64,000 nucleotides of DNA, taken from NCBI GenBank assembly GCA_015061665.1, contig SUWC01000003.1, positions 23,292 to 87,291 of the forward strand, given 5' to 3'. Shown piece after piece: positions 6,924 to 53,270 of this stretch (position 1 is its first letter; every line of letters starts with the position of its first letter). The notes beneath the pieces were generated by a model that saw nothing but the letters and a program-made list of their open reading frames with translations, had not been told where the DNA came from and searched no databases. The translations under genes were made by a program, and so were the position numbers. The DNA comes from Lentisphaerota bacterium (GTDB lineage: Bacteria; Verrucomicrobiota; Kiritimatiellia; RFP12; UBA1067).

Positions 6924-8200
6924 GGCTTGCTGGTTGTGGCTAGTGCCATTTCCCTGAATTGGCGGAAGAGGTAGTTCGAGTCGTGCGGGCCGGGGCAGGA
7001 CTCGGGGTGGTACTGCACCGAGAAGGCGGGGAGAGTCTTGTGGCGGATGCCCTCGATCGAATTGTCGTTGAGGTTTACGTGCGTCACTTCCAGGCAGTCC
7101 GGAACCGACTCGGGCACGACGGCGAAGTTGTGGTTCTGGCTGGTGATCTCGACCTTGCCCGTCGCGAGGTTCTTCACCGGATGGTTGCAGCCGTGGTGCC
7201 CGAACTTGAGCCGCGCCGTCTTCGCGCCGCATGCGAGCGCGAGCAGCTGATGCCCAAGGCAGATTCCCATGATGGGGATGATTCTGTTTTTGACAGGATT
7301 TACAGGATTAACAGAATTTGGGTTTTGAGGGGTTGCCCCAGATAATCCTGTAAATCTTGTTAATCCTGTCGAAAAAGACCTTAGTCCGAGGAACTTCTGA
7401 ATATTCTCGATTGCGTATGTCACTGCCGCGGGATCGGCCGGACCGTTGGATAGAAAGACGCCGTCGGGATTCATCGCGAGGACATCCTCGGCGGGAGTCT
7501 TCGCTGGAACGACCGTGACCTTTGCCCACGACGCGAGCGAGCGGAGGATGTTTGTCTTTACGCCGAAGTCGTAGCAGACGATGTGGGGCAAGGACTTCGG
7601 ACTTAAGGCTTCAGACTTCTGTTTTCGAAGTCCGAGGTCCGAAGTCTGAAGTCTAAACTCGTAACTCTTCTCGCAAGTCACCTTGGCGGCGTAGTCCTGT
7701 CCGTCAAGACCCTCCCATTCTCGCGCCTTGGCTATTGCCTCATCTTCCCCATTCCCCGTTCCCCATTCCCCAACACACAAATACGCCTTCCGGTTGCCGT
7801 GCTCGCGGAGGTGCAGCGTGAGCGCGCGCGTGTCCACGCCGTAGATGCCGGGGATGCCATTCTCGCGGAGATATTCGTCGAGGCTCTTTTCGCTGCGCCA
7901 GTTGCTGGGCTCGGTCAGATCGGCTATTACTAGTCCAGACAGAAAAAGGGCGCGTCTTTCAGTGTCCGCGCTGTTTACTCCGTAGTTGCCGACTTCGGCT
8001 GTCGTGAGGGTGACGAACTGTCCGGCGTAGGATGGGTCGGTAAGTATCTCCTGGTAGCCCGTCATGCCGGTGTTGAACACGACCTCGCCAAGAGTGTCCT
8101 TCTTCGCGCCGAACGCGACGCCGTGGAAGACCGTTCCATCGTCCAGTGCAAGGAACGCCGCCCTTTCGCGCTCCGCTTTCCATTTCTTCTCGTAGTTCAT
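6920..8200 (-). CDS. carA: Carbamoyl-phosphate synthase small subunit, with 3 in-frame repeat insertions
   Basis: Motifs [47 protein letters not shown]. Confidence 0.98.
7287..7376. repeat. Family A palindrome, in frame in carA
   Basis: Encodes [29 protein letters not shown]. Confidence 0.95.
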
Positions 8201-8215
8201 TTAATTTGCTCCATA

Positions 8216-10165
8216 TTAGTAAGATCTTTCATTCCTCTTGTCCAGGTAGTTCTCTAGCGCCTTGTGGAGAACCTTGTATCCGCCCGGCGTCGGGTAGTCG
8301 CCGGTGAAGTACCAGTCGCCGATGGAACTTGAAAGGACTTCTGACTTCGGACTTCCGACTTCCATTGCCGAGGTCGGATGTCCGAAGCCCGAAGTCAGGC
8401 ACCTTCTGAGATCCTCGACGGTCTGATACACCACTTTCACCTCTGCCTTCATCCCGGGAGGGGTGAGAAGGCGCGCGATTTCCGCACAGTGCTGCTCCTC
8501 GGTAAAGCGAGAATAGAGGGGAGCAAGTGGATTCAACTGGGGACGGCGTGCGCGGCGCGCCCGCCCTACCAGTGCTTCGCTCAATTCCCGCTCCCCGCTC
8601 CCCGTTCCCCGTTCCCCATTCATAAGATTGACGAGGGCGCGGAACGCGACGAGCTCGCCGAGCGTGGACATGTCGATGCCGTAGCAGTCGGGGTAGCGGA
8701 TGGGCGGCGCGGAGGATGCGATGACGATGCGCTTCGGTCCAAGCCGATCGAGCATCGGGAGAATCGCGTTCTTCATCGTGTTGCCGCGCACGATCGAATC
8801 GTCAAGGACGACGAGCGTGTCATTCTCCTTGACGAGTCCGTACGTGACGTCGTAGACGTGCTTGTAGAACTCGCGCCGCGCCGCGGCGTCCGCGATGAAC
8901 GTGCGGAACTTCGCGTCCTTCACTATCACCTCGCCGAAGCGGGGGATGCTTTTGACAGGATTTACAGGATTTACAAGATTTTTGGGGTCTGGGGGCATGC
9001 CCCCAGATAATCTTGTCAATCCTGTTAATCCTGTCGCAAAAACACGGGAGAAAAGTTCTTCCAGCAATCCGTGGAAGGCGATGCGCGCGGAGTTGGGGAT
9101 GTAGCTGAAGAAGATGTCCTCCATCGTCGCGTCCGCCGCCTCGAGTATGCGCGGCAGGAGCGCCGCGCCGAGCGCCTTGCGCTCGCGGTGGATGTCGGCG
9201 TCGTTCGCGCGGGAGAAATAAATTCTCTCGAACGAGCAAGGGCGAGGACGAGCATTGATGTCCGAACTCAGTTCGGACATCTGGACTTCGCCATCCGGCG
9301 AGACGACAAGCACCTCGCCCGGCGGCAGCTCCTTCACCGCCTCGGGCGGGACGTCGAACGCGGCCTGTATCGCGGGGCGCTCGCTCGCGACGACTACGAC
9401 GCGCTCGTCGATGTAGTAGAAGCCCGGCCTTATGCCGTTCGGGTCGCGCGTCGCGAACGCCCAGCCGTCCCCCGTCGCGCCGCAGAGCGTCCATGCGCCG
9501 TCGGCGTTCTTCAATGCATTTGCAAGGGCGTCGGCAACGGGAGGGCCGGGCTCTGTCCCGGCCGCGGCCGACACGGAGGTCGGCCCTCCCAGTTCCTTCG
9601 CGATCAGCTCGCAGATGAGGTAGCCGTCGGCCCTGCTCGTCGGAAACGATCCGTGTCGCGCGTAGTCGTCGAATAGCTCGTGCGCGTTCGTTAGGTTGAA
9701 GTTGCCTGCGAGAAGGAGCGTATGGGATAGCTCGCTTGACTCGTGCACGAACGGATGACAGAACGCCACGTCGTTTTTACCGAACGTGGCGTAGCGAAGA
9801 TGGCCGAGGAAAATCCTCTCAAATCTTGTGTGGACAGGATTTACAAGATTTACAGGATTTTGGGGGGCTGATGCTGTGCTCACAGATAATCCTGTCAATC
9901 CTGTCTGAACCTTACACCGCTTCGTCAGCATCCCCAACAGATCTGCAAGAGGTGTAGCGGAGGCGGACTTGGCGATCCAGTATGGCGTTTTGCCTGGCTC
10001 GGGATTGGCCGAGAGTATCGCCGCGCCCGCACCGTCCTGTCCGCGGTTGTGTTGTTTTTCCAGTAGAAGCGAAAGCTTCGTTCCGCCAAAGTCCGCCGTA
10101 GACGACGGTGGCTTTCTAAGGACCACCATCGCCACGGCGCATTCATGCTTTAGTTCGTCTGACAT
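8216..10165 (-). CDS. purF: Amidophosphoribosyltransferase (PurF family), with 6 in-frame repeat insertions
   Basis: MSDELKHEC propeptide/Ntn Cys, QHNRGQDGAG, GHLRYAT, CSFERIYF, PRT motif VLDDSIVRGNT, PDCYGIDM, FTGDYP. Confidence 0.9.
   Translation of the reverse strand: MSDELKHECAVAMVVLRKPPSSTADFGGTKLSLLLEKQHNRGQDGAGAAILSANPEPGKTPYWIAKSASATPLADLLGMLTKRCKVQTGLTGLSVSTASAPQNPVNLVNPVHTRFERIFLGHLRYATFGKNDVAFCHPFVHESSELSHTLLLAGNFNLTNAHELFDDYARHGSFPTSRADGYLICELIAKELGGPTSVSAAAGTEPGPPVADALANALKNADGAWTLCGATGDGWAFATRDPNGIRPGFYYIDERVVVVASERPAIQAAFDVPPEAVKELPPGEVLVVSPDGEVQMSELSSDINARPRPCSFERIYFSRANDADIHRERKALGAALLPRILEAADATMEDIFFSYIPNSARIAFHGLLEELFSRVFATGLTGLTRLSGGMPPDPKNLVNPVNPVKSIPRFGEVIVKDAKFRTFIADAAARREFYKHVYDVTYGLVKENDTLVVLDDSIVRGNTMKNAILPMLDRLGPKRIVIASSAPPIRYPDCYGIDMSTLGELVAFRALVNLMNGERGTGSGERELSEALVGRARRARRPQLNPLAPLYSRFTEEQHCAEIARLLTPPGMKAEVKVVYQTVEDLRRCLTSGFGHPTSAMEVGSPKSEVLSSSIGDWYFTGDYPTPGGYKVLHKALENYLDKRNERSY
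8950..9036. repeat. Family A palindrome, in frame in purF
   Basis: Encodes [28 protein letters not shown]. Confidence 0.95.
9833..9905. repeat. Family A palindrome, in frame in purF
   Basis: Encodes [24 protein letters not shown]. Confidence 0.93.
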
Positions 10166-10181
10166 TTCACGTCACTAACCA

Positions 10182-16538: not shown

Positions 16539-16606
16539 TTAGACAGGATTCACAGGATTTACAAGATTTTAGGACAATCCTGTTAATCATGTAAATCCTG
16601 TCAAAA
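16539..16606. repeat. Family A palindrome, intergenic between glnK and amtB
   Basis: GACAGGATTCACAGGATTTACAAGATT...AATCCTGTTAATCATGTAAATCCTGTC. Confidence 0.95.
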
Positions 16607-27958: not shown

Positions 27959-30900
27959 ATGAACCAGCAAGCCAAATACGAACAGCAAGGGCTCTACAGG
28001 AGCGAATACGAACACGATGCGTGCGGCGTCGGAATGGTCGCAAACCTCTCCGGCGAGGCGAGCCACGACATTGTCCAGAAGGGAATGACGATTCTCAAGC
28101 GCCTGATGCACCGCGGCGCGACGGGGAACGATCCGGAGACTGGCGACGGCGCAGGGCTCCTCATGAAGATTCCGCATGCGTTCTTCAGGAAGGCTTTAGC
28201 CGCAAAGAACGCAAAGAACGAAGAGCCATTCGCCGTCGCGATGATCTTCGGCGGAGAAGGCGAAGAGGACAAGATCGAGGCGGCCGTCAAGGGCGAGGGG
28301 TGCAAGGTCCTCGCATGGCGCGACGTTCCGACAAACCCCGACGCGATCGGACGCGACGCGCGCAGCGTAATGCCGCGGATAAGGCAGGTGTTCATCGGGA
28401 CTTCAGACTTCGGACCCAAGACTTCTGCTGCTGACGTCCAATGTCTGAAGTCCGAAGTCTCTTCCTTCGAACTTCAACTCTACGTCATCAGACGCCTGAT
28501 AGAGAAAAACACCAAGAACACATACGTCTGCTCCTGCTCGTCGCGCACCGTCGTCTACAAGGGGCTTCTTCTTGCGACTCAGATCGAGAAGTTCTACCCC
28601 GACCTCTCCGACCCCGACTTCGTCTCGCCGTTTGCAATAGTGCACCAGCGCTACTCGACGAACACCTTCCCGTCGTGGGAGCTCGCGCACCCCTTCCGCG
28701 CAATCGCGCACAACGGCGAGATCAACGCGCTCAAGGGCAACCTCAACGCTCTTGCGGCGCGAGAGCCGTCGCTCAGGTGGCCGGAAGCGGGGCGGCCGGA
28801 GTCCGCCCCCTACCAGGTGGACCTTAAGAAGATTCTGCCGCTGATCGACAAGGGGCAGTCCGACTCGGCTTCGCTGGACAACATCTTCGAGCTCCTGGTA
28901 GCGGCGGGACGCGACGCGCCGCACGCGATGATGATGCTCGTCCCGCAGGCGTGGGGCAGGAAATACCACATGGGACACGACGTGCGCGCGTTCTACGAGT
29001 ACCACTCCGCGCTGATGGAGCCTTGGGACGGACCGGCCGCGCTCGCCTTCACCGACGGCATCAGCCTCGGTGCCGCCCTCGACCGCAACGGGTTGCGCCC
29101 TGCCAGGTGGACGCTTACAAGGGACGGCCTTTTCGTCCTCGCGTCGGAAACAGGCGTGCTTGACATCGCGCCCGAAAACATAGCGCGCCACGGCAGGCTG
29201 AAGCCCGGTTCGCTTCTCTGGCTCGACCTCGCGAAGCACCGCCTGATGGAGGACGCCGAGCTCAAGACGTACTGCGCGCGCCGCAGACCATACCGCCGCT
29301 GGGTGAAGGAGAACCACATCCCCGTCACGGGACTATTCACCGAAATCGTGCCGTCGAAATTGGGGAATGGGGAATGGGGAATGGGGAATGGGATTGCACG
29401 CGAACAAAACCGCTTTGGCTGGACGCTGGAGGACATCGAGCTAATTCTCCGCCCGATGGCGGAAACGGGACACGAACCGGTTGGCGCGATGGGAAACGAC
29501 GCCGCGCTTGCGGCGCTCTCACGCAAGCCGCGCATTCTCTTCGACTACTTCCACCAGCTCTTCGCTCAGGTCACGAACCCGCCGATCGATCCGATCCGCG
29601 AGGAACTCGTGATGTCGATCATGACCTACATCGGAAACGAGGGGAACATACTCGCCGAGACTCCGGCGCACGCTCGTCTCGTGAAGATGACGCGACCGGT
29701 CCTGACCGACGACGAACTCGCGCGACTCAGGAACATCCCCGATTTCCCTGCGAAGACGCTTTCAATGTGCGTCGGGGAATGGGAAACTGGGAATGGGGAA
29801 CCGGGGTGGCTGAAGGCCGCGCTTGACAGGCTTGCCGCCGACGCGATTGAAGCAGTGAAGGAAGGCGCGAAGATAGTTATCCTTTCCGATAGGAAATTGC
29901 TTTCGCCGCTGGGAGATAAGGAGACTAGGAGTTTGGGAGATTCTGAGGAAAGATCTCCAAGTCTCCCAAACTCCAAAACTCCAAGTAGCGAAAGCAAAAA
30001 GCGAATCCCGTCCCTCCTCGCGGTTGCCGCGGTGAACAAGGCGCTCGTCGAAGCGGGGGCGCGTCCGTCAGTCGGCATCATCGTTGAATCCGGCGAGGTG
30101 CGCGAAGTGCACCACTTCGCCGTCCTGCTCGGCTTCGGCGCAACGGCCGTCAACCCGTGGCTTGCCCTTGCGACAGTATCCGAGATCGGGAAGTCCGACA
30201 CAGTGAAGGCAGCTGCGAACTACGTGTCCGCAGTCTGCAAGGGCCTGATGAAGATCATGTCGAAGATGGGCATCTCGACACTGCGCTCCTACCGCTCGGC
30301 GCGCATCTTCGAGGCCGTCGGCCTCGGTCCGAAGATCGTCGCCGAGTATTTCACCGGCGTCACATCGCCCGTGGGCGGACTGGAGCTGGAGGATATCGAG
30401 AAGATAGCTGGAGTGAAAAGTTGGAGTTCGAGAAATGAAGAAAACAACTCCACTCTCGAACTCCAACTCGAAACTCCAACTCTCCCTCCCGGCGGCGAGT
30501 ATCGCTTCCGCAAGGGCGGCGAGGAGCATCTCTGGTCTCCGCAGCGGCTCGTCGACTTCCGCGAGTCCGTGCGCCACAATGACTACGCGCGCTTCCACCG
30601 CTATACCGACGACATTGACTCCAATAGCCATGTCACATTGAGATCTCAACTGGAATTTAAGAGTTCGACAGGATTTACAGGATTGGAAAGCGTAAACAAT
30701 CCTGATAATCCTGTAAATCCTGTCAAAAACAACATCGAGTCCGTCGACTCCATAGTGAAGCATTTCGTTGGCGGGGCGATGTCGCTCGGCTCGCTTTCCC
30801 CTGAGGCGCACGAGACGATCGCGCTCGCGCTGAACGGACTCAGCACGATGTCCAACTCCGGCGAAGGCGGCGAAAACCCAGAGCGCTTCGGCACGGAAAA

Positions 30901-32605
30901 GAACAGCGCCATCAAGCAGGTGGCGTCCGGACGCTTCGGCGTGACGATCGAGTACCTTCGCAGCGCAAAGGACCTCCAGATCAAGCTCGCGCAGGGCGCG
31001 AAGCCGGGCGAGGGCGGACAGCTCCCCGCGCACAAGGTAAACGAGTTCGTCGCGCGCCTGAGGCATGCGAAGCCCGGCACGACGCTGATCTCGCCTCCGC
31101 CGCACCACGACATCTACTCGATCGAGGACCTCGCGCAACTGATATACGACCTCAAGTGCGCGAACCCCGCCGCGCGCGTCTCGGTGAAGCTTGTTTCCGA
31201 AGCGGGCGTGGGAACGATCGCGGCAGGCGTCGCGAAGGCGCACGCGGACGTAATCGTGATATCCGGCTTCGACGGCGGTACGGGCGCCGCTCCGCTTACT
31301 TCGATGAAGCACGCGGGACTTCCATGGGAAGTCGGTCTTGCCGAGGCGCATCAGACGCTCGTAAAGAACAACCTGCGCGACCGCGTGAAGCTCCAGGTCG
31401 ACGGACAGCTCCGCACCGGACGCGACATCGTCATCGCCGCGATGCTCGGCGCGGACGAGTTCGCGTTCGGCACCTCGATGCTCGTCGCGCTCGGGTGCGT
31501 GCAGTGCCGCAACTGCAACCTCAACTGCTGCCCCGTCGGAATCGCGACGCAGAAGGAGGAGCTTCGCTGCAAATTCGCAGGAAAGCCAGAACATCTGCAG
31601 TCCTACTTCCGCTTCCTCGCCGAGGAGGTTCGCGAGCATCTCGCCGCGCTGGGACTGAAGTCGCTCGCCGAGGCACGCGGACGCGCCGATCTCCTGAAGG
31701 CGAAGGACGGCTCGAGATTTGACTTTGCCGCGCTGCTGGCAAAGGAAGGGACTTCAGACCTCGGACTTCAGACTTCAGTTGTCGAAAGTCCGAAGTCCGA
31801 GGTCTCGTGGCTTCAAAACTACGACTTCCGCGAGCTAATACCTGCGGTCGAGAAAGGCGAGACGCGACTCGAGCGCACAATCTCCAACAGCGACCGCTCC
31901 GTCGGCGCTGCGCTCTCGGGCTGGCTTGTCGCCAATCGTTGCTCCGATGGACAAGTTCCCAGTCCTGACGGTCGAACTGCGTTCGACCTATCCATAGCCT
32001 TCGCCGGCGTGGCCGGCCAGTCGTTCGGCGCTTTCCTCGCCAAGGGCGTAACCTTCGACCTCTCGGGCGAAGCCAACGACTACATCGGCAAGTCGCTCTC
32101 CGGCGGCGTGATAACGATAAGGCCGCCGAAAGGCGCGGCGTTTCCGCCAGAGGGCAACGTCATCGCGGGCAATGTGGTCGCCTACGGCGCGACGTCGGGC
32201 GGGATATTCGTCAACGGCCTCGCAGGCGAGCGCTTCGGCATCAGGAATTCCGGCGCGACGCTCGTCGCAGAGGGCGTTGGAGACCACGGCTGCGAATACA
32301 TGACGGGCGGCAAGGTCGTGATCATCGGCCCTGTCGGCGTCAACTTCGCGGCTGGCATGACTGGCGGCGTAGCGTACGTCTACGACGAAAAGGCGACGCT
32401 CGACCTCAACTGCAACCTGGATTCAGTCGATCTCTTCCCCGTGGAGGAGAACTCCGATGACGAAGCGGCGCTCATCGCCCTTCTGAAGGAGCACTTCGTC
32501 CGCACAAGCTCTCCCAAGGCGAAGCGGATACTCGAAGACTGGGACACCGAGCGCCCGAAATTCGCCAAGGTTCTCCCTATCGCAACCGGGAGAAGTATGG
32601 TATAA
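27959..32605 (+). CDS. gltB: Glutamate synthase large subunit, with at least 8 in-frame repeat insertions
   Basis: Motifs EHDACGVG, HQRYSTNTFPSW, FAQVTNPPIDPIRE, QGAKPGEGGQLP, GCEYMTGG. Confidence 0.98.
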   Translation: MNQQAKYEQQGLYRSEYEHDACGVGMVANLSGEASHDIVQKGMTILKRLMHRGATGNDPETGDGAGLLMKIPHAFFRKALAAKNAKNEEPFAVAMIFGGEGEEDKIEAAVKGEGCKVLAWRDVPTNPDAIGRDARSVMPRIRQVFIGTSDFGPKTSAADVQCLKSEVSSFELQLYVIRRLIEKNTKNTYVCSCSSRTVVYKGLLLATQIEKFYPDLSDPDFVSPFAIVHQRYSTNTFPSWELAHPFRAIAHNGEINALKGNLNALAAREPSLRWPEAGRPESAPYQVDLKKILPLIDKGQSDSASLDNIFELLVAAGRDAPHAMMMLVPQAWGRKYHMGHDVRAFYEYHSALMEPWDGPAALAFTDGISLGAALDRNGLRPARWTLTRDGLFVLASETGVLDIAPENIARHGRLKPGSLLWLDLAKHRLMEDAELKTYCARRRPYRRWVKENHIPVTGLFTEIVPSKLGNGEWGMGNGIAREQNRFGWTLEDIELILRPMAETGHEPVGAMGNDAALAALSRKPRILFDYFHQLFAQVTNPPIDPIREELVMSIMTYIGNEGNILAETPAHARLVKMTRPVLTDDELARLRNIPDFPAKTLSMCVGEWETGNGEPGWLKAALDRLAADAIEAVKEGAKIVILSDRKLLSPLGDKETRSLGDSEERSPSLPNSKTPSSESKKRIPSLLAVAAVNKALVEAGARPSVGIIVESGEVREVHHFAVLLGFGATAVNPWLALATVSEIGKSDTVKAAANYVSAVCKGLMKIMSKMGISTLRSYRSARIFEAVGLGPKIVAEYFTGVTSPVGGLELEDIEKIAGVKSWSSRNEENNSTLELQLETPTLPPGGEYRFRKGGEEHLWSPQRLVDFRESVRHNDYARFHRYTDDIDSNSHVTLRSQLEFKSSTGFTGLESVNNPDNPVNPVKNNIESVDSIVKHFVGGAMSLGSLSPEAHETIALALNGLSTMSNSGEGGENPERFGTEKNSAIKQVASGRFGVTIEYLRSAKDLQIKLAQGAKPGEGGQLPAHKVNEFVARLRHAKPGTTLISPPPHHDIYSIEDLAQLIYDLKCANPAARVSVKLVSEAGVGTIAAGVAKAHADVIVISGFDGGTGAAPLTSMKHAGLPWEVGLAEAHQTLVKNNLRDRVKLQVDGQLRTGRDIVIAAMLGADEFAFGTSMLVALGCVQCRNCNLNCCPVGIATQKEELRCKFAGKPEHLQSYFRFLAEEVREHLAALGLKSLAEARGRADLLKAKDGSRFDFAALLAKEGTSDLGLQTSVVESPKSEVSWLQNYDFRELIPAVEKGETRLERTISNSDRSVGAALSGWLVANRCSDGQVPSPDGRTAFDLSIAFAGVAGQSFGAFLAKGVTFDLSGEANDYIGKSLSGGVITIRPPKGAAFPPEGNVIAGNVVAYGATSGGIFVNGLAGERFGIRNSGATLVAEGVGDHGCEYMTGGKVVIIGPVGVNFAAGMTGGVAYVYDEKATLDLNCNLDSVDLFPVEENSDDEAALIALLKEHFVRTSSPKAKRILEDWDTERPKFAKVLPIATGRSMV
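30664..30729. repeat. Family A palindrome, in frame in gltB
   Basis: Encodes STGFTGLESVNNPDNPVNPVK. Confidence 0.93.
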
Positions 32606-36228: not shown

Positions 36229-36849
36229 TCAGGAAAAATGCGCTTGCAGAGCGCCAAGAAGCCCGTCTAGCAGCTCAAGGGACTTCACGCCCGGGGATGT
36301 TTCGATTGAGCTGTTGACGTCAAGCACGTCCGCACCGGTCGCAGCCGCGTCGGCGATGTTGGCGGACGACAGTCCTCCCGCCAGGACGACGCGCCTGTTG
36401 GCGCGCTTCAGCTCCCCGACAAGCGACCAGTCCGCCCGCATCCCAGTCCCGCCGCAGCGCGCGCCGTCGCGTCCGTCAAGGAGAACTGCGTCTGCGGCCG
36501 TGTTCGCCGCGGCGTCCTGCGATTGAAGGAGCCAGACCTCATGGCCCCTCGATTTCAGGAAAGCGACGTCTTCAGCCGTGTATTCGCCGTGGAGCTGTGC
36601 AACGTCCAACTTTACGGACGACGCGATTTCGGCGATATCCGATGCGGAATGCCTTACGAAAACTCCGACAAAGCGCGGCAGATCTGCCGCGGACGCTCGC
36701 ACGGCGTCGACTATCCGCCGCGCCGCCTCGACGGAGACGCACCGCGGCGATTTTGCCGCGAAGATGAGCCCAAGGTAGTCGACGCCGCGCCGCGCCGCCT
36801 CGACTGCGAACGCGGCGTCGTTTATTCCGCACACCTTCAGGCGAGGCAT
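36229..36849 (-). CDS. trpF: Phosphoribosylanthranilate isomerase
   Basis: Motifs KVCGI, QLHGE, GGTG, LAGGL, DVNSSIE. Confidence 0.93.
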   Translation of the reverse strand: MPRLKVCGINDAAFAVEAARRGVDYLGLIFAAKSPRCVSVEAARRIVDAVRASAADLPRFVGVFVRHSASDIAEIASSVKLDVAQLHGEYTAEDVAFLKSRGHEVWLLQSQDAAANTAADAVLLDGRDGARCGGTGMRADWSLVGELKRANRRVVLAGGLSSANIADAAATGADVLDVNSSIETSPGVKSLELLDGLLGALQAHFS

Positions 36850-37592
36850 GGCTTCTTCCCGTCGGCTACGAGCTTCACCAGCGCGGAGCCGACAATGTAT
36901 CCATCGGCGTGGCGCGAAACCTCCTCGCCCTGCGCCTTCGTCGAGATGCCAAAGCCGGCCGCGACGGGAAGGTGCGACACGGCGCGGATCGACTCGAGGC
37001 GAGACGCGAGGTCGGCAGGCAGCTCGGTTCTCGCGCCGGTCGTGCCCTTTACGGTGATCACGTACAGGAACGAGTTGTCGAGCCCCTTCTCGCTTTCCCT
37101 GACACGCTCAATAGGCGTATTCGGCGCGATGAGCGGAATGTATCCGATTCCGTACGACCTGAGGACGCTCAGCAGCTCCTCCCGCTCCTCAAGCGGAAGG
37201 TCAACCGCGAGGACAGCGTCAACGCCAGCGTCCGCCGCGGCCTTCGCGAAGGTCTCGAGCCCCTTCGAGAAGATGAGGTTGTAGTACGAGAACAGGACGA
37301 ACCCAGTCTCGGGATGGCGGGCGCGGAGCCGCTTCGTAAGCTCCAGCACTCCGTCCAGCGTCGTGCCCTGCTTGAGGGCCTCGTACGCCGCCGAGCGGAT
37401 AACCCCGCCGTCCGCGAACGGATCTGAGAACGGGACGCCCAGTTCCACGATGTCGGCTCCCGATGCGATTACGTCGTCGATCGCCTGTTCGCTCTTTTCC
37501 ATCGTCGGGAAGCCAACTGTGAGATACGCGACAAAGGCGCCGCGCCCTTCCGACTTCGCCCTCGCGAAGGACTCTGTTATTCTCTGCTTCAT
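36837..37592 (-). CDS. trpA: Tryptophan synthase alpha chain
   Basis: Motifs ELGVPFSDPFADGGVI, GFGIST, IVGSA. Confidence 0.96.
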   Translation of the reverse strand: MKQRITESFARAKSEGRGAFVAYLTVGFPTMEKSEQAIDDVIASGADIVELGVPFSDPFADGGVIRSAAYEALKQGTTLDGVLELTKRLRARHPETGFVLFSYYNLIFSKGLETFAKAAADAGVDAVLAVDLPLEEREELLSVLRSYGIGYIPLIAPNTPIERVRESEKGLDNSFLYVITVKGTTGARTELPADLASRLESIRAVSHLPVAAGFGISTKAQGEEVSRHADGYIVGSALVKLVADGKKPCLA

Positions 37593-37604
37593 GTTCAAAT
37601 TTCC

Positions 37605-38780
<1,176 letters not shown>

Positions 38781-38807
38781 AGTAACTGATCTAGCTGATT
38801 ATTGTGG

Positions 38808-39614
38808 TTAAAACTTCTTTGCCATCTGCACCTGACTGATTAGTTCTTTGAGTTTGGCCCCTGGCCATCGCTCGCGCATCAGCGCGGTGCCGACAAGGAA
38901 GCCGTCCGCGCCGGCGTCCCGAGCGCGGGCTATCGCCTCGGCGGAGTGCATCCCCGACTCGGCGATCCTCACGCACGGGCGCGGGATGCGCCCGATGAAA
39001 GTCTCGAGCCGCGACACGTCGCACTTGAAGTTGCGGAGATTCCTGCAGTTCACGCCGATCATCTTCGCGCCGACTCCGACCGCGCGGTCGATTTCGTTCT
39101 CGTCGTGCGTCTCCACCAGCGCCGCGAGCCCAAGCTCGTGCGCGAAGGCAAGGAGGTCAGAGAGCTTCGCGTCGTCCAGAACCGCCGCGATGAGCAGAAC
39201 CGCATCAGCCCCCGCCGCGCGCGCAGCCGCGATCTGGTAGGGCGACGAAAGGAAGTCCTTGTAGAGGATCGGAAGACCGACGACGCCGCGCACCGACTTC
39301 AGGTAGTCCTCGCTTCCGAGGAAGCGGTGCGGCTCGCAGAGGACCGACAGCGCGGCCGCGCCAGCGGACTCAAGCTCCTTGGCAAGTTCAAGCGGACGGA
39401 AGTCTTCTCGGATCATCCCCTCGGACGGCGACGCGCGCTTCAGTTCCGAGATGACGCGCGGCGTCCGCCCTTCGCCCCTGAACGCGCCGATGAAGTCGCA
39501 CGGCGCCGGCGCGGCGGAAGCGCGGCGCATCATCTCGTCGAACGAGACCTCCGCCTCGCGCAGCTCCGCGTCCCTGCGGCGCATGGCCGTGAGTTCTTCG
39601 AGTATGTCGCTCAT
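38808..39614 (-). CDS. trpC: Indole-3-glycerol phosphate synthase
   Basis: Motifs ELKRASPSEG, KDF, GVNCRNL, AESG. Confidence 0.95.
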   Translation of the reverse strand: MSDILEELTAMRRRDAELREAEVSFDEMMRRASAAPAPCDFIGAFRGEGRTPRVISELKRASPSEGMIREDFRPLELAKELESAGAAALSVLCEPHRFLGSEDYLKSVRGVVGLPILYKDFLSSPYQIAAARAAGADAVLLIAAVLDDAKLSDLLAFAHELGLAALVETHDENEIDRAVGVGAKMIGVNCRNLRNFKCDVSRLETFIGRIPRPCVRIAESGMHSAEAIARARDAGADGFLVGTALMRERWPGAKLKELISQVQMAKKF

Positions 39615-41221
39615 CGCATCGCCTCCAGCATCGCATGGAGCTTCGCGAAAGCGCGACCGGAGTCTACGGACTCCTTTGCCGCCGCAACGGAGTCCGCGTA
39701 GCTTGACGCCTTGTCCGCCACGAGAATCGCGGCAGCTGCGTTTTCAACCGCAGCGGCGCGGCGCGCCCCGCGGTCCTCGCCCTTCAGAACGCCCAGCAGG
39801 AGCTTCGCGTTCTCCTGCGCGTCGCCGCCCTTGATCGCGTCTAGCCCGAATCGCTCGCCGTATTGCCCGCCAGCGTCCAGAAGCGTGTTCTTGACGAGTC
39901 CGTGTTCCAGGGTGGAGACGAAGGTGAATCCGTCGGGGCTTATCTCGTCAAGTCCGCCCGACCCGCACACGACCATCGCGCGCTTCGAGCCGAGCCTCGC
40001 GAGCGCATTGGCGAGGACCATCGTGAGCTTCTCCTGCGGCACGCCGATCACGTGGCGTTTCGCGCCCGCGGGGTTCGTGAGCGGGCCAAGGAGGTTGAAG
40101 ACCGTCCGGAAGCCGAGCGTACGCCGGACGGACGCGGCGAACCGCATAGCGGGATGGAGATTGCGGCAGAAGAGGAACCCGACGCCCGTGCGCTTGACGC
40201 AGTCGGCCATCTTTTCCGCCCCCGCGGCAAGGTTGAGGCCGAGCGCGCCGAGCACATCCGCCGAGCCGCACATCGAAGTGGACGCGATGTTGCCGTGCTT
40301 TGCGATCGTGACCCCCGCGCCTGCTGCGATGAACGCCGCGGTCGTGGAGACGTTGAAGGAGTTGGATCCGTCGCCGCCGGTCCCAACGATGTCGACGGCA
40401 TCGAGTCCGCCGAGGTCGACTTTGACCGCGGCGTCGCTCATCGCCCGCGCCGCGCCCGCCAAAGCCTCCGGCGTAACGGGATTGCGCGCGATCGCCGTGA
40501 GAAAGGCGGCGAGTTCAGGCTCGCTGACCTCTCCGGAGAGAATGGACGCGAAGAAGCCCTCGGACTCCTCCTCTCCAGGCGTTGCGCCGTCGAGGGCTCG
40601 CGCGATCACGGCCTTGCGGACGGACTGCGTCAGCGTCTTGTGCGTGCGCCGGCCGATGGCCATCTCGAGAAAGTTGGCGAGCTGCTTCACGCCCTGGGGG
40701 GTGCCGATGGACTCGGGGTGGTACTGGAGCGACTCGATCGGCAGCGTCTTGTGGCGCAGTCCCATGATTTCGCCGTCCTCGCTTTCGGCGGATACCTCGA
40801 AGCAGTCGGGGAGCGTCGCGCGCTCGACCGCAAGCGAGTGGTAGCGCATGGCGGAGAAGCCCTGGTCGAGTCCGGCGAACAGCCCCTTTCCGTCATGGCG
40901 GATGCGGCTCGTCTTGCCGTGCATCAGGCGCTTGGCGCGGACTATGCGTCCGCCGAAGGCCTGGGCTATGGACTGGTGCCCCAGGCAGATGCCGAGGAGC
41001 GGCACCTTGCCGGCGAAAGCCTTGACCGCCTCGAGCGTCACGCCGGCGGAGTCCGGATTGCCGGGCCCCGGCGAGAAGACGATCGCCTGCGGGTTGAGCG
41101 CGGCGATTCCCGCCACGTCGATCTTGTCGTTTCTGACGACCTTCATGTCCGCGCCTAGCGCGCGTATCATCTGCACGAGATTGTACGTGAAGGAGTCGTA
41201 GTTGTCGATCATCAGTATCAT
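39611..41221 (-). CDS. trpGD: Fused anthranilate synthase component II / anthranilate phosphoribosyltransferase
   Basis: MILMIDNYDSFTYNL, GICLGHQ and QYHPES, followed by DIVGTGGDG, KHGN and FNLLGPLTNP. Confidence 0.95.
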   Translation of the reverse strand: MILMIDNYDSFTYNLVQMIRALGADMKVVRNDKIDVAGIAALNPQAIVFSPGPGNPDSAGVTLEAVKAFAGKVPLLGICLGHQSIAQAFGGRIVRAKRLMHGKTSRIRHDGKGLFAGLDQGFSAMRYHSLAVERATLPDCFEVSAESEDGEIMGLRHKTLPIESLQYHPESIGTPQGVKQLANFLEMAIGRRTHKTLTQSVRKAVIARALDGATPGEEESEGFFASILSGEVSEPELAAFLTAIARNPVTPEALAGAARAMSDAAVKVDLGGLDAVDIVGTGGDGSNSFNVSTTAAFIAAGAGVTIAKHGNIASTSMCGSADVLGALGLNLAAGAEKMADCVKRTGVGFLFCRNLHPAMRFAASVRRTLGFRTVFNLLGPLTNPAGAKRHVIGVPQEKLTMVLANALARLGSKRAMVVCGSGGLDEISPDGFTFVSTLEHGLVKNTLLDAGGQYGERFGLDAIKGGDAQENAKLLLGVLKGEDRGARRAAAVENAAAAILVADKASSYADSVAAAKESVDSGRAFAKLHAMLEAMR

Positions 41222-42648
41222 TACAGTTCCTCCGCAAACTTGACGGCCTCGAAGACGGCCTTGGACTTGTTGACTGTCTCCTCGTATTCCTTTTCGGGAT
41301 CGGAGTCCGCGACGATCCCCGCTCCGGCGCGCATCATTATGCCGTCGCCTTCCTTGAGAAGGGTCCGGATGACGATGGCGAAGTTCATGTCGCCTGTAAG
41401 CGAGAAATATCCGGCGGCACCGCCGTAGACTCCGCGCGGGGACTTCTCGTACTCGGCGAGCAGCTCCATGGCGCGAATCTTGGGCGCGCCCGAGAGAGTC
41501 CCTGCGGGGAACGTCGCCTTGAGCAGGCCAAATGCATCGTACTCCTTGTCGAGCGTGCCGGAGACGTTGCTTACGAGATGCATGACGTGCGAGTAGCGCT
41601 CGACATGGGCGAGCCCCGAGACCTTGACGCTGCCCGTCTCGCAGACGCGCCCGAGGTCGTTGCGCCCGAGGTCGACGAGCATGACGTGCTCCGCGTTCTC
41701 CTTCTCGTCCGCCTTGAGTTCGCGCTCCAGCTCCGCGTCGAGCGCGGCGGTTTTGCCGCGCGGACGCGTTCCGGCGATCGGCGCGGTCGAGGCGGTGCGT
41801 CCGTCGAGCTTCACGAGCTCCTCCGGCGAGGAGCCGATCAGCGTCTTTCCGCCGAGGCGCATGAAGAAGTTGTATGGCGACGGATTGATCATCCTGAGTG
41901 CGCGGTACAGCGCGAGGTCGGAGACGGAAGAGCGCGCGAGGAACTTCTGCGACGGCACGATCTGGATCACCTCGCCGGCCGCGATCGCCTCCTTGCACTT
42001 CGCGACCATCGCGCAGAACTCATCGCGCGTCATCTCGCTGACGAACTCCGATGCGGGGCCTCTTGAGGCGCGCGGCTTCGGAGCGCCTGCAAGGCGGGCG
42101 ATAGAATCCGCGCTCAGCATCTTCGCGTAGATGCGCTCTATCTGCGCCATGGCGTCCGCATAGGCGCCATCCTTCGACGCGTCTGCGATGACTACGATCG
42201 TAACCGTTCCGCGGACATTGTCGAACACAAGGAACTTGTCGCAGACGAGGAACGACATCAGAGGGGTCCCTTCGGCGCTCTTGGTCCTGATCCGAGGCTC
42301 GAAGATTCGTACTGCGTCGTAGGAGACATACCCGACCGCGCCGCCCTGGAAGGAAGGTATTTCGGGCGCGGGGTTGTAGCGCAGCGACGAAAAGCGCGCG
42401 CGGAGCTCCTCCAGCGCGGACTCTCCTTCAACGCGGCCGCACGGCTCGAGACCGAGGTAGGAGTAGCGTCCGCGCGTCTCCCCGCCGGCGACGCTTTCGA
42501 GCAGAAAGGCCTCCTCCGAGTCGTCGAGGCGCGAAAGCGCGGCGACTGGTGTCTCGCGGTCGGACAGGAACTCCTTGAATACCGCGACGCGGTCGGCATT
42601 CGCCGCGCGGCGGACGTATTCTTCTTCTGTAAGGATTTTCATGCTCAT
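41221..42648 (-). CDS. trpE: Anthranilate synthase component I
   Basis: Motifs LLESV..GRYSY, PIAGTRPRG, EHVMLVDLGRND, FPAGTLSGAPK. Confidence 0.96.
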   Translation of the reverse strand: MSMKILTEEEYVRRAANADRVAVFKEFLSDRETPVAALSRLDDSEEAFLLESVAGGETRGRYSYLGLEPCGRVEGESALEELRARFSSLRYNPAPEIPSFQGGAVGYVSYDAVRIFEPRIRTKSAEGTPLMSFLVCDKFLVFDNVRGTVTIVVIADASKDGAYADAMAQIERIYAKMLSADSIARLAGAPKPRASRGPASEFVSEMTRDEFCAMVAKCKEAIAAGEVIQIVPSQKFLARSSVSDLALYRALRMINPSPYNFFMRLGGKTLIGSSPEELVKLDGRTASTAPIAGTRPRGKTAALDAELERELKADEKENAEHVMLVDLGRNDLGRVCETGSVKVSGLAHVERYSHVMHLVSNVSGTLDKEYDAFGLLKATFPAGTLSGAPKIRAMELLAEYEKSPRGVYGGAAGYFSLTGDMNFAIVIRTLLKEGDGIMMRAGAGIVADSDPEKEYEETVNKSKAVFEAVKFAEEL

Positions 42649-42695
42649 GAGGTTTTCTTTGCCTTTTTGATTATGTCGTTTTTCGGAAAAACAAA

Positions 42696-42727
42696 TCGGG
42701 CCGAGTCTCCTAGGAGATCCGGCCCGA
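42696..42727 (-). terminator. trp attenuator terminator hairpin
   Basis: Minus strand reads TCGGGCCGGATCTCCTAGGAGACTCGGCCCGA followed by TTTGTTTTT. Confidence 0.8.
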
Positions 42728-42752
42728 GCTTTCGCGCTTACATGGATTTCAA

Positions 42753-42830
42753 CTATATGAGGAAGCGCACCGCAAGACCAGATCCGCAGTGGCGCCACCA
42801 GTAGTTGTAAACGCATGTTTTGTTCTTCAT
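42753..42830 (-). CDS. trpL: trp operon leader peptide MKNKTCVYNYWWRHCGSGLAVRFLI
   Basis: 25-codon ORF with tandem TGG TGG, directly upstream of the terminator hairpin and trpE. Confidence 0.85.
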   Translation of the reverse strand: MKNKTCVYNYWWRHCGSGLAVRFLI

Positions 42831-50302: not shown

Positions 50303-50311
50303 ATTGCTCTT

Positions 50312-50722: not shown

Positions 50723-50909
50723 GAATGCCGCTAACTTAAGGCGATAATTGGCGATAATGTCGCAATAATCAATGATAGGTGAAAGCAAGCCGAGAAATGA
50801 TTCGCATGCCTACAAAACCAGGTTCGTCTTCCATTTTGTGCTATGAACATTCAGATCCGATGAAATGTCGGCAAAAAATTCGTTCTTTTCGCTTAAGTTA
50901 GCGGCATTC
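50723..50909. mobile_element. 187-bp IS4-family-like MITE
   Basis: Perfect 18-bp inverted repeats GAATGCCGCTAACTTAAG, flanked by 11-bp GGGTCTGAGCT / GGGTCAGAGCT. Confidence 0.8.
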
Positions 50910-50933
50910 GGGTCAGAGCTTATTAATACACAC

Positions 50934-51341: not shown

Positions 51342-51909
51342 CCTGGGCAGCGCCCCTCGCACACCGCCATCCGGTAGGGCGCGATCACCGAGCGCGCCGC
51401 AACGGCTATGCCAAGTCCGCCTCGGCAACCGAAAAGCGACCGACTATGCTCATATCGACATCGCATGAATTAATCACATTTATGACAAACAGGGAACCTA
51501 TCTTTTACAATCGGTATTGGATCGCCTGTCCTCACAGCCTTCTGAAGACCAAGAGGAATCAGCGTAGGCTTATAGTGCTTCAGTTTCCCCTTTCGCTTTC
51601 CGCGCTTCATGCGCGTCTTTCCCGACTGCCGCTTAGCCTCAATCAGTTTCGCCGTGCGCCTGCGAAATTCATCGCGACTCTGCGATCTAATCCCCCATAC
51701 AACTGCCAATATAATCAGTGCGGCGATGAACTGGCGCGGAAGCACAAAGAGCCACACAATACAAACAATCAATAGAAGACCATAGCCCATCGCACGGTCT
51801 AGCCTATTGGCGACTTTAGCTTTATGTTTACGAGCAGGCATTGTTGCGGTTTTATTACGTTTTATCTGTATTGTAATCACAGGCAATATAATTGTAAACT
51901 GCCACATCC

Positions 51910-52368
51910 CTACTCAGTTCCTCCTTGAAATCTATATTGAGGAGAAGTAATAACTTGCCATTCATTATTTGTGACGCCATCACATAACACAACCTCGGCA
52001 TAAAAAGCACATGTACTGATATCTTGCGGCATTAAAACTGAAAAGCGACATTCAGCGCCAGCTAAAACAATCAGCTTACCCTGATCAGAAGCCATCCCTC
52101 CAGATGAGCATCCACGTATCCATTCGCCTCCCTGCTTTATGTAAAAAACTAAAAATGGATGTTCCCTTCCTAGCAAGAATTTAGCAGTATTGGCCTTATT
52201 TGTAAATACGAACTCGCACTTGTATACGTCCGCCGCCTTAGAAACTTTTTCCAGCAACAAGCAATACTCTTTTTGCCGCGATGCACTCATTAACAAGGTT
52301 AAACACACCATAAGAACCGGTGCAACTACAAGAAGCGCTAGCGCAGTTCGCTTACCTCGCCTTGACAT
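51910..52368 (-). CDS. Hypothetical AT-rich membrane-anchored protein (orphan immunity-like)
   Basis: Follows an Rhs fragment. GGAGG ribosome-binding site and an N-terminal hydrophobic helix. Confidence 0.5.
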   Translation of the reverse strand: MSRRGKRTALALLVVAPVLMVCLTLLMSASRQKEYCLLLEKVSKAADVYKCEFVFTNKANTAKFLLGREHPFLVFYIKQGGEWIRGCSSGGMASDQGKLIVLAGAECRFSVLMPQDISTCAFYAEVVLCDGVTNNEWQVITSPQYRFQGGTE

Positions 52369-52439
52369 AGCGGAAATGCCTCCCCCCATTACCTTCGGTC
52401 TCCAGACTATATCCATTGTTTCTATACCAGCGAGCAAAA

Positions 52440-53270
52440 CGTGAATCAAAATGCCGATAGTTGTAATAAATCAGAGATGTGTCATCGTCAGCATACTCGC
52501 TTGAGAATCGCCAGAAGTTGCGATACGCGCTTTCGCCGACAGCCTGCGACATAGCTCCGAATGGTGCGTATTCGTAATGAGCCTCAATCTTTTTGTCCGT
52601 ATCGACGACCTCGCTTACATTCTTGTTGCCATCATGCGTATAGATCGATGATGCGCCACTACGATTCCAAACAAGCGGTCTGGTAGCGACGGGTTCTGTC
52701 GGATCCCAGATGAATAGTTGTGAGTTTGTAGCAGAAACATCAAAGCTGGCGACCTGCAAATAGCCGTCATAGACAAACCGCTGGTTGTTCTTCGTCACGC
52801 GGCGGCCCTGACGGTCGAAGGACATGGAAATGAGTGTGGGAGTGGAGGAGTTGGGAGTGGAGGAGTTAATAAGGGTCCACAACACAGGACGGTTTTCGCC
52901 GTTGTACTGAACCTGCCAGATGCCGGTCGCGGTCTTGACGAGGGTCTGGTTGCCATCGTCGTCGAACTGGGGAGAAAAGCTGGAAGTCTGAAGTCCGACG
53001 TCTGAAGTCAAAGTCGTTATCGAGCAATACCAGTTGAGCTGATTTGCCACGTAGACGGCATTGGTGCCGCGCTCGGATGATGTCTCGCGATTGCCGATGT
53101 CGTCAAAGTCGTAGGCGTAGCGGTATTCAGCATCAATCGCCGCTACAGCATTCGTAAGCTCGCTGCGAGTGTTGTTGGCGTAGGCAAAACAGCCGTCCCA
53201 CGCCGTGGCAGTCACCTGCCCGGCGAGATTTTCGAGCGACGTGCGCTTACCCTGTTCGTTGTATGTCATG
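52440..53270 (-). pseudogene. Orphan Rhs core fragment
   Basis: YAYDFDDIGNRETSSERGTN, FDDDGNQTL, THDGNKNVS, HYEYAPFG and YYNYRH, paralogous to the Rhs gene at 61349+. It lacks the N-terminus and the toxin tip. Confidence 0.88.

Follow-up and report, generated by a model that had tools for sequence, protein, structure and literature searches.

Results

The 64-kb stretch of DNA analysed here (the window) carries five copies of a short repeat, family B, of the general form (GACTTCN)n–loop–(NGAAGTC)n, four of which are palindromes and one a 27-nt single arm. A search for GACTTCNGACTTC with at most one mismatch returned 20 matches in the window, against 0.54 expected and a maximum of 3 in 100 dinucleotide shuffles, an excess over the shuffles of about 37-fold; 19 of these matches lie inside the five elements and one is a stray at 14027. 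The palindrome in carA spans 7593–7653, within a 63-nt coding insert (7592–7654) that is read on the minus strand. It has four-unit arms and a 7-nt loop (ΔG −15, z −3.7), and its insert encodes 21 residues in slot 2, the linker that joins the N-terminal domain to the amidotransferase domain. A second palindrome, at 8336–8396 (TSGFGHPTSAMEVGSPKSEV; ΔG −19.9, z −5.3), occupies the C-terminal slot of a purF-like gene on the minus strand. Two more lie in gltB, namely a partly decayed copy on the plus strand at 28399–28459 in slot 1 (TSDFGPKTSAADVQCLKSEV; z −3.0) and a palindrome at 31750–31804 in slot 2 (TSDLGLQTSVVESPKSEV; ΔG −18.5, z −4.7). The single arm, at 52983–53009 on the minus strand of an RHS/YD-repeat fragment, consists of four units without an inverted partner and encodes TSDVGLQTS. 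When folded as single-stranded DNA, the four palindromes gave −12.8 to −19.9 kcal/mol (z −3.0 to −5.3), whereas the single arm gave no fold (z +0.69). All five copies are read through in frame.

These elements had been proposed in an earlier note made from the sequence alone; the positions were borne out, with slightly refined limits, and the peptides quoted there were correct on translation. The hosts that it named could be accepted in part. carA (TIGR01368, 448.9 bits) and gltB are firmly identified, but purF can be called only purF-like, its TIGR01134 score of 132.8 bits being under the cut-off of 350, and the Rhs fragment is recognised by a YD repeat that exceeds its cut-off, the Rhs core falling slightly under its own.

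Other short-unit elements share the window with family B. Family A, which is built of a 9-nt unit, follows the same plan, as the same note had stated: units in tandem, a spacer that varies and the units again in inverted orientation. The arms measure about 27 nt in either family, and further 7-, 8- and 9-mer families also have this architecture. Family A palindromes were found in carB (3718–3792), twice in pyrG (5373–5457 and 5802–5868), in slot 3 of carA (7289–7372), in the middle slot and slot 1 of the purF-like gene (8951–9034 and 9833–9907), in the intergenic spacer upstream of amtB (16542–16602) and in gltB (30665–30727; STGFTGLESVNNPDNPVNPVK). gltB also carries a further short-unit palindrome with GGAGAYT-type units (29903–30001). 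A GGGGAAY heptamer tandem run without an inverted arm lies in carA slot 1 (7745–7771, minus strand; GEWGTGNGE), a GGGGAAC/GGGGAGC run in the purF-like gene (8585–8617, minus strand; GERGTGSGERE) and a GGGGAAT run in gltB (29363–29392, plus strand; GNGEWGMGNG). Families A and B crowd one 30-kb nitrogen-metabolism gene cluster, at the genes of the glutamine-using enzymes carB, pyrG, carA, purF-like and gltB; family B matches were found on the gltB contig of at least one other genome, G033.

The source genome (G000) is a gut/rumen Kiritimatiellia MAG of 3.44 Mb in 177 contigs. The genome-wide motif search that the earlier note called for detected 12 clusters of at least three hexamers, nine of which were judged to be family B, five of them in the window; with a short arm at C111:4489 this makes 10 family B loci on five contigs. 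Eight of the 10 are intragenic, and all eight are open in frame, in carA, the purF-like gene, gltB (twice), a GH3 gene, a GT4-WecG fusion, UxaC and the RHS fragment, hosts that are functionally unrelated. The elements are 55–84 nt long with variable loops, and their peptides are cyclic readings of the heptamer. Within the genus, 21 of 101 genomes carried the family B pattern; at class level the count was 24 of 301, spread over 14 of 142 genera. The reversed pattern, used as a control, gave 0–4 matches per genome. Palindromic copies also occur in a second genus of the family (G354). At least 13 copies in G034 have an identical loop and flanking modules. Unit number differs between otherwise near-identical copies in this genome, and these are embedded in longer modular repeats and adjoin long multi-copy sequences; what looks like a burst of the hairpin may instead be that of a larger unit. 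Loops and flanks were likewise copied together with the arms in G064, and many copies in G033, G060 and G064 are perfectly palindromic through the centre. Family B copies are dispersed over unlinked loci and many species.

Arrays of at least three approximate units numbered 160 at period 7, 26 at period 8 and 39 at period 9 in the source genome, compared with 16, 0 and 0 in a triplet shuffle. They sort into many unit families, with 44 heptamer unit labels, and several families occur together in this one genome. A hairpin scoring at least 12 contains 54 of the 225 arrays, and many arrays are plain tandem runs without an inverted arm. Intergenic copies are present, and intergenic DNA strings different heptamer runs end to end. 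Using a conservative classifier, we placed 44 of 144 heptamer arrays in confidently coding DNA, compared with 308 of 600 random sites, so that arrays are rarer there. The elements of this class measure 55–105 nt, have arms of tandem 7–9-nt units and comprise dozens of families in the genus; nested elements and remnants were seen, including one family within the loop of another.

We looked among orthologues for the same peptides in the absence of the DNA repeat, an observation that the earlier note said would speak against its reading. The peptides were absent from such orthologues, which had short loops or other fillers at the carA, purF-like and gltB sites, so that the repeats are insertions and not ancestral protein sequence. 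In coding DNA, family B copies are real insertions, translated in frame. Outgroups lack the inserts, and so does E. coli CarA (carA comparison alone).

The loops and linkers concerned in carA, purF and gltB, here called slots, are filled by families that differ from species to species. A tandem run or hairpin was present at carA site 1 in 32 of 120 genus-level loci (1 of 38 outgroup loci), at site 2 in 67 of 132 (1 of 19) and at site 3 in 54 of 129 (0 of 21), and the fillers of site 2 bore 33 unit labels, representing roughly 25 families. Sites 2 and 3 are occupied in at least half of the species; the load per genome is about 200 elements. Slot 3 of carA, held by family A in the window, has other families in other species, and family B in other genomes occupies slots held by family A here, namely the middle slot (G060, G354) and slot 1 (G033) of the purF-like gene. 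The family B insert in gltB slot 1 is common to G014 and G064, and a short loop is found in G013 and G016; that in gltB slot 2 is common to G012, G014 and G033, with other families in G003, G008, G013 and G018. The purF-like C-terminal copy is orthologous to one in G018.

Unrelated fillers stand between flanks that are 93–99% identical over 300 nt, and the fillers of close relatives have neither sequence nor unit length nor peptide in common; in some relatives the loop is short and free of repeats. The units are unlike the sequence of empty sites, and no direct repeat, as a target-site duplication would leave, was found at the junctions when filled and short sites were compared. Fillers at times overwrite adjacent native codons (loci L254, L251 and L010). 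An allele of the purF-like gene that is 63 nt shorter (8319–8381 absent, with CCGA microhomology) was detected in contigs from two RNA-library runs, and a contig from an independent study spans the purF-like element. Orthologous carA copies of equal length range in fold from z −7.9 to z 0.0. A family can be scattered over the carA tree, which is weakly supported, and this scatter could reflect recombination instead of repeated insertion.

The earlier note had suggested that heptamer arms might flank a small gene. In the source genome, a fragmented MAG, we found no gene enclosed by heptamer arms or by same-family inverted arrays, and 17 Y1-transposase (Y1_Tnp) genes in G000, G033, G034, G060 and G064 were all without a family B arm within 1.5 kb. 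The source genome has five Y1-transposase-like genes, three of which (on C168, C71 and C24) are flanked by GC-rich palindromic repeats with sequences different from that of family B. Neither an enzyme nor a donor copy nor any transposition event came to light. The sole reverse transcriptase found in the genome adjoins an HRDC-domain gene, a pairing known from some diversity-generating retroelements. Classical DDE transposition does not fit the lack of target-site duplication. That one mechanism works with different units, as the note put it, is supported in part. The common plan, the common loop sites across species and the occurrence of families nested in or beside one another make it fair to suppose that the different units are handled by one process. 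No heptamer-flanked gene or Y1 link lends it support, and the phenomenon is wider than the note stated, taking in plain tandem runs and intergenic copies.

Discussion

The closest known relatives of family B are the STRR hairpins of cyanobacteria and the palindromic elements of Rickettsia. STRR families are composed of tandem 7-bp units, with several unit families dispersed per genome, and occupy intergenic DNA of filamentous cyanobacteria. Tandem runs of 7-bp units are found in both systems (heptamer arrays are ten times the shuffle here), as are several dispersed unit families per genome (44 heptamer labels, with family B on five contigs) and inverted runs that fold as hairpins (z −3.0 to −5.3); runs are also strung together in intergenic DNA here, and function and spread are unexplained for STRR too. 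According to PMC2670836, the inverted runs of STRR can form hairpins, for which an effect on transcript stability has been proposed. Whereas STRR are intergenic, the five window copies and eight of the 10 family B loci are intragenic, beside some intergenic copies, and the host belongs to the Kiritimatiellia (PVC group) rather than the filamentous cyanobacteria. Here, moreover, 8- and 9-nt units act like 7-nt ones, and many copies lie in frame in core enzyme genes, at recurrent loop slots and with fast turnover, a kind of copy for which we found no description for STRR in the literature searched.

Rickettsia palindromic elements are described as in-frame palindromic inserts in unrelated metabolic genes, translated as an extra peptide where the fold permits (PMC10969869). 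Both systems place a palindromic repeat in frame in unrelated protein genes, but the Rickettsia elements, from another lineage, are about 100–150 bp long with a conserved family peptide, whereas those described here are 55–105 nt long, with tandem-unit arms and dozens of families that replace one another at slots. Family B resembles the REP/REPIN-RAYT repeats in being a short, dispersed, imperfect palindrome without target-site duplication. REPs are extragenic and lack a tandem-unit build, whereas family B is mostly intragenic and made of tandem units; the RAYT-linked repeats of the source genome are unlike family B, and none of the 17 Y1_Tnp loci holds a family B arm. The SDR repeats of Nostoc (Elhai et al., 2008) are reportedly mobile repeats of 21–27 nt, linked to hairpins and runs of heptamers, that insert into one another and for which no enzyme is known. 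One family nested in the loop of another was seen here too, but units and lineage differ. HIP1 has been reported as a possible insertion site of SDR5 (PMC5861425). MITEs are small, non-coding, multi-copy elements with inverted-repeat ends that at times lie in frame in genes (PMC10969869). The terminal inverted repeats are matched by the arms of about 27 nt in family B, but family B junctions have no target-site duplication, its loops vary freely between copies, and a parent element sharing its ends was not detected among same-family inverted arrays of the source genome or at the 17 Y1 loci of five genomes, all fragmented MAGs.

We lean towards the view that family B is a selfish, STRR-like hairpin microrepeat that spreads without target-site duplication, is kept in coding DNA only if in frame, stop-free and structurally tolerated, and turns over by nested insertion, deletion at microhomologies and recombination. 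On this view family B belongs to a large class of such elements in gut Kiritimatiellia. Each consists of a tandem series of units of 7, 8 or 9 nt, in many cases paired with an inverted series, so that it can form a hairpin when single-stranded. It would be spread, with no target-site duplication left behind, by a process that acts in trans or is tied to replication, slippage would alter its unit number, and selection would retain only copies that keep the frame, contain no stop codons and lie in a permissive loop or linker. A loop once opened may become a neutral slot where later elements land, preferably in or beside the existing hairpin, and old elements would be lost by microhomology deletion or swapped by recombination between species, so that the slot would last while its filler changes. 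Neither the hairpin nor the encoded peptide would have a conserved function. This selfish-element model leaves the concentration of families A and B in the nitrogen-metabolism cluster unaccounted for, which counts against it. So does slot occupancy, which is far above what random insertion and selection from about 200 elements per genome would give and requires a targeting or rewriting step.

An unlikely alternative is templated or reiterative writing, in which a polymerase, reverse transcriptase or primase-like activity would add runs of a lineage-specific unit at break or stall sites and fold-back copying would produce the inverted arm, the slots being fragile sites and the families templates. 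It would accommodate the refilling of the same slots with unrelated units, sharply bounded between near-identical flanks, as well as the overwritten native codons, the end-to-end strings of different runs in intergenic DNA, the missing target-site duplication and the perfect central palindromes of G033, G060 and G064, which are expected from fold-back copying. However, no candidate enzyme is linked to the repeats, several families in one genome would need several templates, and the copying of loops and flanks with the arms in G034 and G064 resembles whole-element copying, not unit-by-unit synthesis. Even less credence can be given to a purely local origin, by which a 7–9-nt string multiplies in place through replication slippage and the palindrome arises through intramolecular template switching, with no movement between loci. 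Variable unit number, the central symmetry of many copies and the commonness of arrays without an inverted arm agree with such an origin, but it is already strained by the dispersal data, one heptamer unit recurring at 10 loci of the source genome and in 21 of 101 genus genomes, and at least 13 copies in G034 having a common loop and flanking modules. The units are, in addition, unlike the empty-site sequence, and the mismatch repair genes mutS and mutL are present in 39 and 40 of 41 relatives, respectively, so that a general slippage phenotype is not indicated.

The strength of the hairpins and the crowding of families A and B at glutamine-using enzyme genes could instead point to a functional element, the hairpin acting in RNA or DNA (on transcript stability, pausing or regulation of the nitrogen cluster) or the peptides being under selection, either as flexible linkers or because they diversify exposed loops. 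An effect on transcript stability has been proposed for the cyanobacterial STRR hairpins (PMC2670836), and diversifying selection is conceivable as a cause of the fast turnover at fixed loops. We nevertheless judge this improbable: orthologous copies decay to no fold with their length unchanged, the other family B hosts (GH3, glycosyltransferase, UxaC) are functionally unrelated, the fillers of close relatives are wholly different, and some relatives have short loops and no repeat. The fragmented MAG and a second, divergent purF-like fragment on C166 might raise the suspicion of an assembly or binning artefact, but the same elements recur at identical positions in MAGs that were assembled independently and in metagenome contigs of many projects, they are present in contigs of other sequencing runs, and all genic copies keep open reading frames, which reduces the chance of an artefact to almost nothing.

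More tentatively than the selfish microrepeat that we favour, one can envisage a structure-directed 'slot and filler' system, in which an activity in this Kiritimatiellia lineage writes or inserts short-unit hairpin DNA of any unit into existing hairpin slots, including those in essential enzyme genes, so that fixed protein loops are overwritten again and again in genes that otherwise hardly change. Such a system, if real, would add a new way of moving DNA or of synthesising repeats from a template, and it could account for the long-unexplained spread of STRR-type repeats.

The inserts have practical consequences: they break assemblies and lower family scores in annotation, as in the purF-like gene (132.8 bits against a cut-off of 350). 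If the preferred reading of family B as a selfish hairpin repeat holds, core-enzyme loops throughout a genus of uncultured bacteria from gut and rumen would be colonised by dozens of micro-repeat families that change faster than the surrounding genes, among them loops of carbamoyl-phosphate synthase, glutamate synthase, an amidophosphoribosyltransferase-like enzyme and CTP synthase. These loops would amount to a map, made by nature, of where well-studied enzymes tolerate insertions, and to a dense, datable record of how very small repeats are gained, decay and disappear; the genus would offer a non-cyanobacterial system for learning how heptamer (STRR-type) repeats spread, a question unexplained since their first description.

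Family B palindromes and their host genes

The five heptamer-repeat stretches reported in the earlier note were all found in the sequence as described, in carA, in a purF-like gene, twice in gltB and in an RHS/YD-repeat fragment. The hosts named carA (TIGR01368, 448.9 bits) and gltB were confirmed, and the Rhs host corresponds to the RHS/YD-repeat fragment, but the gene named purF scores under the family cut-off (132.8 vs 350 bits) and can be called only purF-like. Two adjacent units (GACTTCNGACTTC, at most one mismatch) occurred 20 times in the 64-kb window, 19 of these matches being accounted for by the five elements, and 100 shuffles of the window gave a mean of 0.54 and a maximum of 3. Four of the elements are palindromes in which three to four heptamer units are separated from their inverted counterparts by a 7–20-nt loop, with folding energies as single-stranded DNA of −12.8 to −19.9 kcal/mol (z −3.0 to −5.3); the fifth, in the RHS/YD-repeat fragment, is a single arm of 27 nt with no fold. 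The reading frame continues through all five. Because 7 and 3 have no common factor, a heptamer run passes through all three reading phases; each copy therefore encodes the same seven residues in some cyclic order, and its inverted arm a second set. These predicted peptides follow directly from the nucleotide sequence.

Both family B and family A, the related palindromes built from a 9-nt unit, are concentrated in one nitrogen-metabolism cluster in the window (1874–32605), which comprises carB, pyrG, carA, the purF-like gene, a type III glutamine synthetase, two glutamate-cysteine-ligase-like genes, a class II amidotransferase, amtB, pdxS/pdxT, gltD and gltB, and is followed by a trp operon (36229–42816). 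Nowhere in the genome are repeats packed more densely than in the pyrG-carA-purF stretch, with seven elements in 4.5 kb. The gltB contig of the relative G033, at least, also has family B matches. A functional theme shared by the hosts was considered and rejected, since GH3, glycosyltransferase and UxaC genes outside the nitrogen/glutamine-enzyme cluster carry family B as well. A second, divergent purF-like fragment in the host genome (contig C166, 39–1142) is 74–77% identical to the window copy but has no counterpart of that copy's first family A insert. The fragment is a paralogue, or else a related strain's contig binned into the metagenome-assembled genome (MAG). The longest called ORFs of trpE and trpGD (41221–42816 and 39611–41998) overlap by about 780 nt, the trpGD ORF having 795 codons for amino acids.

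The elements are insertions in their host proteins

The host MAG comprises 3.44 Mb in 177 contigs, and its close relatives are Kiritimatiellae/Kiritimatiellia of rumen and gut. Comparison of carA from 18 relatives placed the family B element (site 2) in a stretch that varies, with a conserved block on either side; the corresponding part of E. coli CarA (1cs0_B and others) is the linker joining the two domains. Five members of the order's other families have a native linker of 21 residues at this site, and some members of the genus have 8–10 repeat-free residues. Compared with E. coli CarA, the carA family A element (site 3) has been inserted between residues 259 and 263. Likewise, gltB slot 1 holds twenty residues in the window genome vs four in two relatives (G013 and G016), and the C-terminal slot of the purF-like protein holds 33 vs 12–13 in most of 98 loci. 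The earlier note had named, as what would refute it, the presence of the same peptides in orthologues that lack the DNA repeat; given the short loops and native linkers of the relatives, such orthologues lack the peptide too, and the note's observation stands up to this check. The family B segments of the window are thus insertions and not old protein sequence.

The same slots are filled by different repeat families

The most striking result is that the same sites have been taken repeatedly by different repeat families. Site 2 of carA is occupied by family B in the window genome, G012 and G014, by family A in G018, by an 8-mer palindrome in G008, by a 9-mer palindrome in G003 and by plain tandem runs in G009, G011 and G013; this site alone accounts for 33 unit labels, or roughly 25 families. 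A survey took in 177 genomic and metagenomic carA loci, which were assigned to groups by how closely they matched the query, without regard to the feature itself. A tandem run or hairpin was present in 32/120, 67/132 and 54/129 genus-level loci at sites 1, 2 and 3, respectively, and in 1/38, 1/19 and 0/21 outgroup loci. Refilling by different families was also seen at both gltB slots and three purF-like slots, and slots filled by family A in the window genome hold family B in G033, G060 and G354.

The carA tree (FastTree) left 38 of 107 inner branches unsupported, and pairwise comparison of flanks was therefore used as the main basis. Unrelated fillers with sharp boundaries occur in pairs of carA genes that share 93–99% identity over 300 nt of flank (for example 296/300 and 282/300, or 292/300 and 282/300), and some fillers also replace seven adjacent native codons. 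Composite states were found in which the loop of an 8-mer palindrome contains a family A arm, or in which lone leftover units of one family adjoin a full element of another.

Short-unit repeats in the genome and their distribution

Approximate arrays of at least three units were counted genome-wide and compared with a triplet shuffle. Arrays were strongly in excess at periods 7 (160 vs 16), 8 (26 vs 0) and 9 (39 vs 0), the count at period 5 being 1064 vs 1068. The heptamer arrays sort into 44 unit labels, family B contributing nine arrays and the family A unit being a 9-mer; arms are about 27 nt long in both families, and a hairpin of score 12 or more was found in 54 of 225 arrays. The largest heptamer group, GGGGAAT/GGGGAAC, has 62 arrays on either strand, mostly without an inverted arm. 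Its runs lie in the window at 7745–7771, 8585–8617, 29363–29392 and 29774–29800; those with four G-tracts and 3-nt spacers are candidate G-quadruplexes by sequence. Several repeat families occur within the same protein in the window, and unlike heptamer runs are joined end to end in intergenic DNA upstream of genes. The coding/non-coding classifier used for the arrays is conservative, calling 308 of 600 random sites coding, and its figures are relative only.

Two further palindromes are dispersed in the host genome. A 62-nt terminator-like hairpin (about 17 copies, for example C108:61–122, C140:32–93, C153:61–122 and C56:194–255) adjoins AGCAGCC heptamer runs and often lies 30–250 nt from a contig end, and it therefore probably breaks the assembly. 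The other measures about 77 nt, its 26-nt arms being GC-rich and its 25-nt loop conserved, and is often near GGGGAAY runs (C160:2001–2077, C174:34072–34148, C53:39496–39572, C76:18951–19023 and C31:13998–14073).

With a pattern of three units and at most one mismatch, family B was detected in 21 of 101 genus genomes, with up to 56 matches per genome vs 0–4 for the reversed control pattern, and in 24 of 301 genomes and 14 of 142 genera of the class. Palindromic copies are also present in G354, from a different genus of the same family, and none matching the strict pattern was found in three genomes of other families.

Decay and loss of the elements

At carA site 2, orthologous family B copies of equal length vary between an intact hairpin (z −7.9) and no hairpin (z 0.0), which shows that the fold is not being preserved. 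In one study, two RNA-library runs yielded contigs that are 97–98% identical to the window but lack 63 nt (8319–8381); the missing segment takes in the greater part of the purF element plus 17 nt of flank, and a 4-nt repeat bounds the gap. DNA contigs of two other runs are unbroken across it; all four runs were available as contigs, for which depth and uncovered parts are uninformative. The cut is not symmetric to the hairpin, and for this reason another strain's allele made by microhomology deletion seems the more likely explanation, RNA-level removal being the other. The carA element is spanned unbroken by an RNA-library contig (X16 record 17), and the purF element by a contig of an independent DNA study (X5 record 25). 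Joints around other fillers (8518–8624, 8941–9059 and 9814–9929) are most simply attributed to other strains with other fillers, not to splicing. A metagenome scan for close strains gave nothing above 80% protein identity, in a collection from which near-identical records may be missing.

Candidate agents of spread

No target-site duplication was detected at the element junctions when the carA and gltB slots were compared among relatives. The earlier note had suggested that heptamer arms might flank a small gene; a search of the host genome for pairs of same-family arrays lying within 6 kb of each other found no such gene. A RAYT/REP link for family B was rejected, as no family B arm was found when the 1.5 kb around each of 17 Y1 genes was searched in five genomes. 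Three of the five Y1-transposase (RAYT-like) genes of the host genome (C168:10871–11149, C71:6400–6621 and C24:42137–42358, the others being C4:800–967 and C177:9493–9660) are flanked by their own GC-rich palindromic repeat arrays, so that the genome harbours a REP/RAYT-type system alongside its heptamer repeats. The genome also encodes a lone reverse transcriptase of 478 residues with RVT_1 only (C6:21119–21727; locus L300, 883–2319, minus strand), adjoined by an HRDC-domain protein (L300, 2343–3188), a pairing known from some diversity-generating retroelements; it lies on another contig, and no link to the repeats was seen.

Loss of mismatch repair as the cause of slippage was rejected, mutS being present in 39 and mutL in 40 of 41 relatives (23/24 and 24/24 within the genus). 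The hairpin nuclease SbcD was found in 8 of 41 genomes (5/24 in the genus, 3/16 in the order's other families) and, with the query used, not in the host genome; its loss is not informative as a cause, because its distribution is patchy in repeat-rich and repeat-free lineages and the family-B-rich G033 has it.

The relative G034 has at least 13 family B copies with a common loop and flanking modules and differing unit numbers, which looks like copying plus slippage. These copies are embedded in longer modular repeats beside long multi-copy sequences at contig ends, and a larger unit may therefore be what multiplied. Two such multi-copy sequences lie 100–300 nt from family B hairpins (loci L101, L106, L113 and L115; L103, L105 and L119), one of them containing 24-nt tandem repeats and a 12-nt palindrome in several copies. 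The two may mark the termini of a large transposon inserting near, or carrying, repeat clusters. In G033, G060 and G064, many family B copies are perfectly palindromic through the centre.

Relation to known systems and interpretation

A literature search for repeats like the present ones in Kiritimatiellia found no description. Small dispersed repeats were reportedly the subject of a study by Elhai et al. in 2008. The closest described systems are the cyanobacterial STRR hairpins, which are hairpin-capable 7-bp repeats of unknown function (PMC2670836), and the Rickettsia palindromic elements, which are palindromic inserts that lie in frame in metabolic genes (PMC10969869). The present elements differ from STRR in location and lineage, from Rickettsia palindromic elements in size and peptide, from MITEs in the duplication feature and from REPs in RAYT linkage.

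We favour, with moderate confidence, the reading that the elements are selfish hairpin micro-repeats akin to STRR, whose spread leaves no target duplication and which turn over in tolerated in-frame slots. The observations show that they are dispersed and inserted, occupy slots, turn over and decay; the mode of spread and a preference for existing hairpins are inferred. Two facts are not accounted for by this reading: the very high slot occupancy, given about 200 elements per genome, and the clustering of families A and B among the nitrogen-metabolism genes. Because of these, we keep in mind the bolder and rather improbable idea that some activity writes short-unit hairpins into existing slots. 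On the favoured reading of selfish micro-repeats, slippage would alter their unit number, and survival in a gene would require a copy that keeps the frame, brings no stop codon and is tolerated by the host. A slot, once opened, would then be neutral, and its fillers would turn over by nested insertion, microhomology deletion and between-species recombination.
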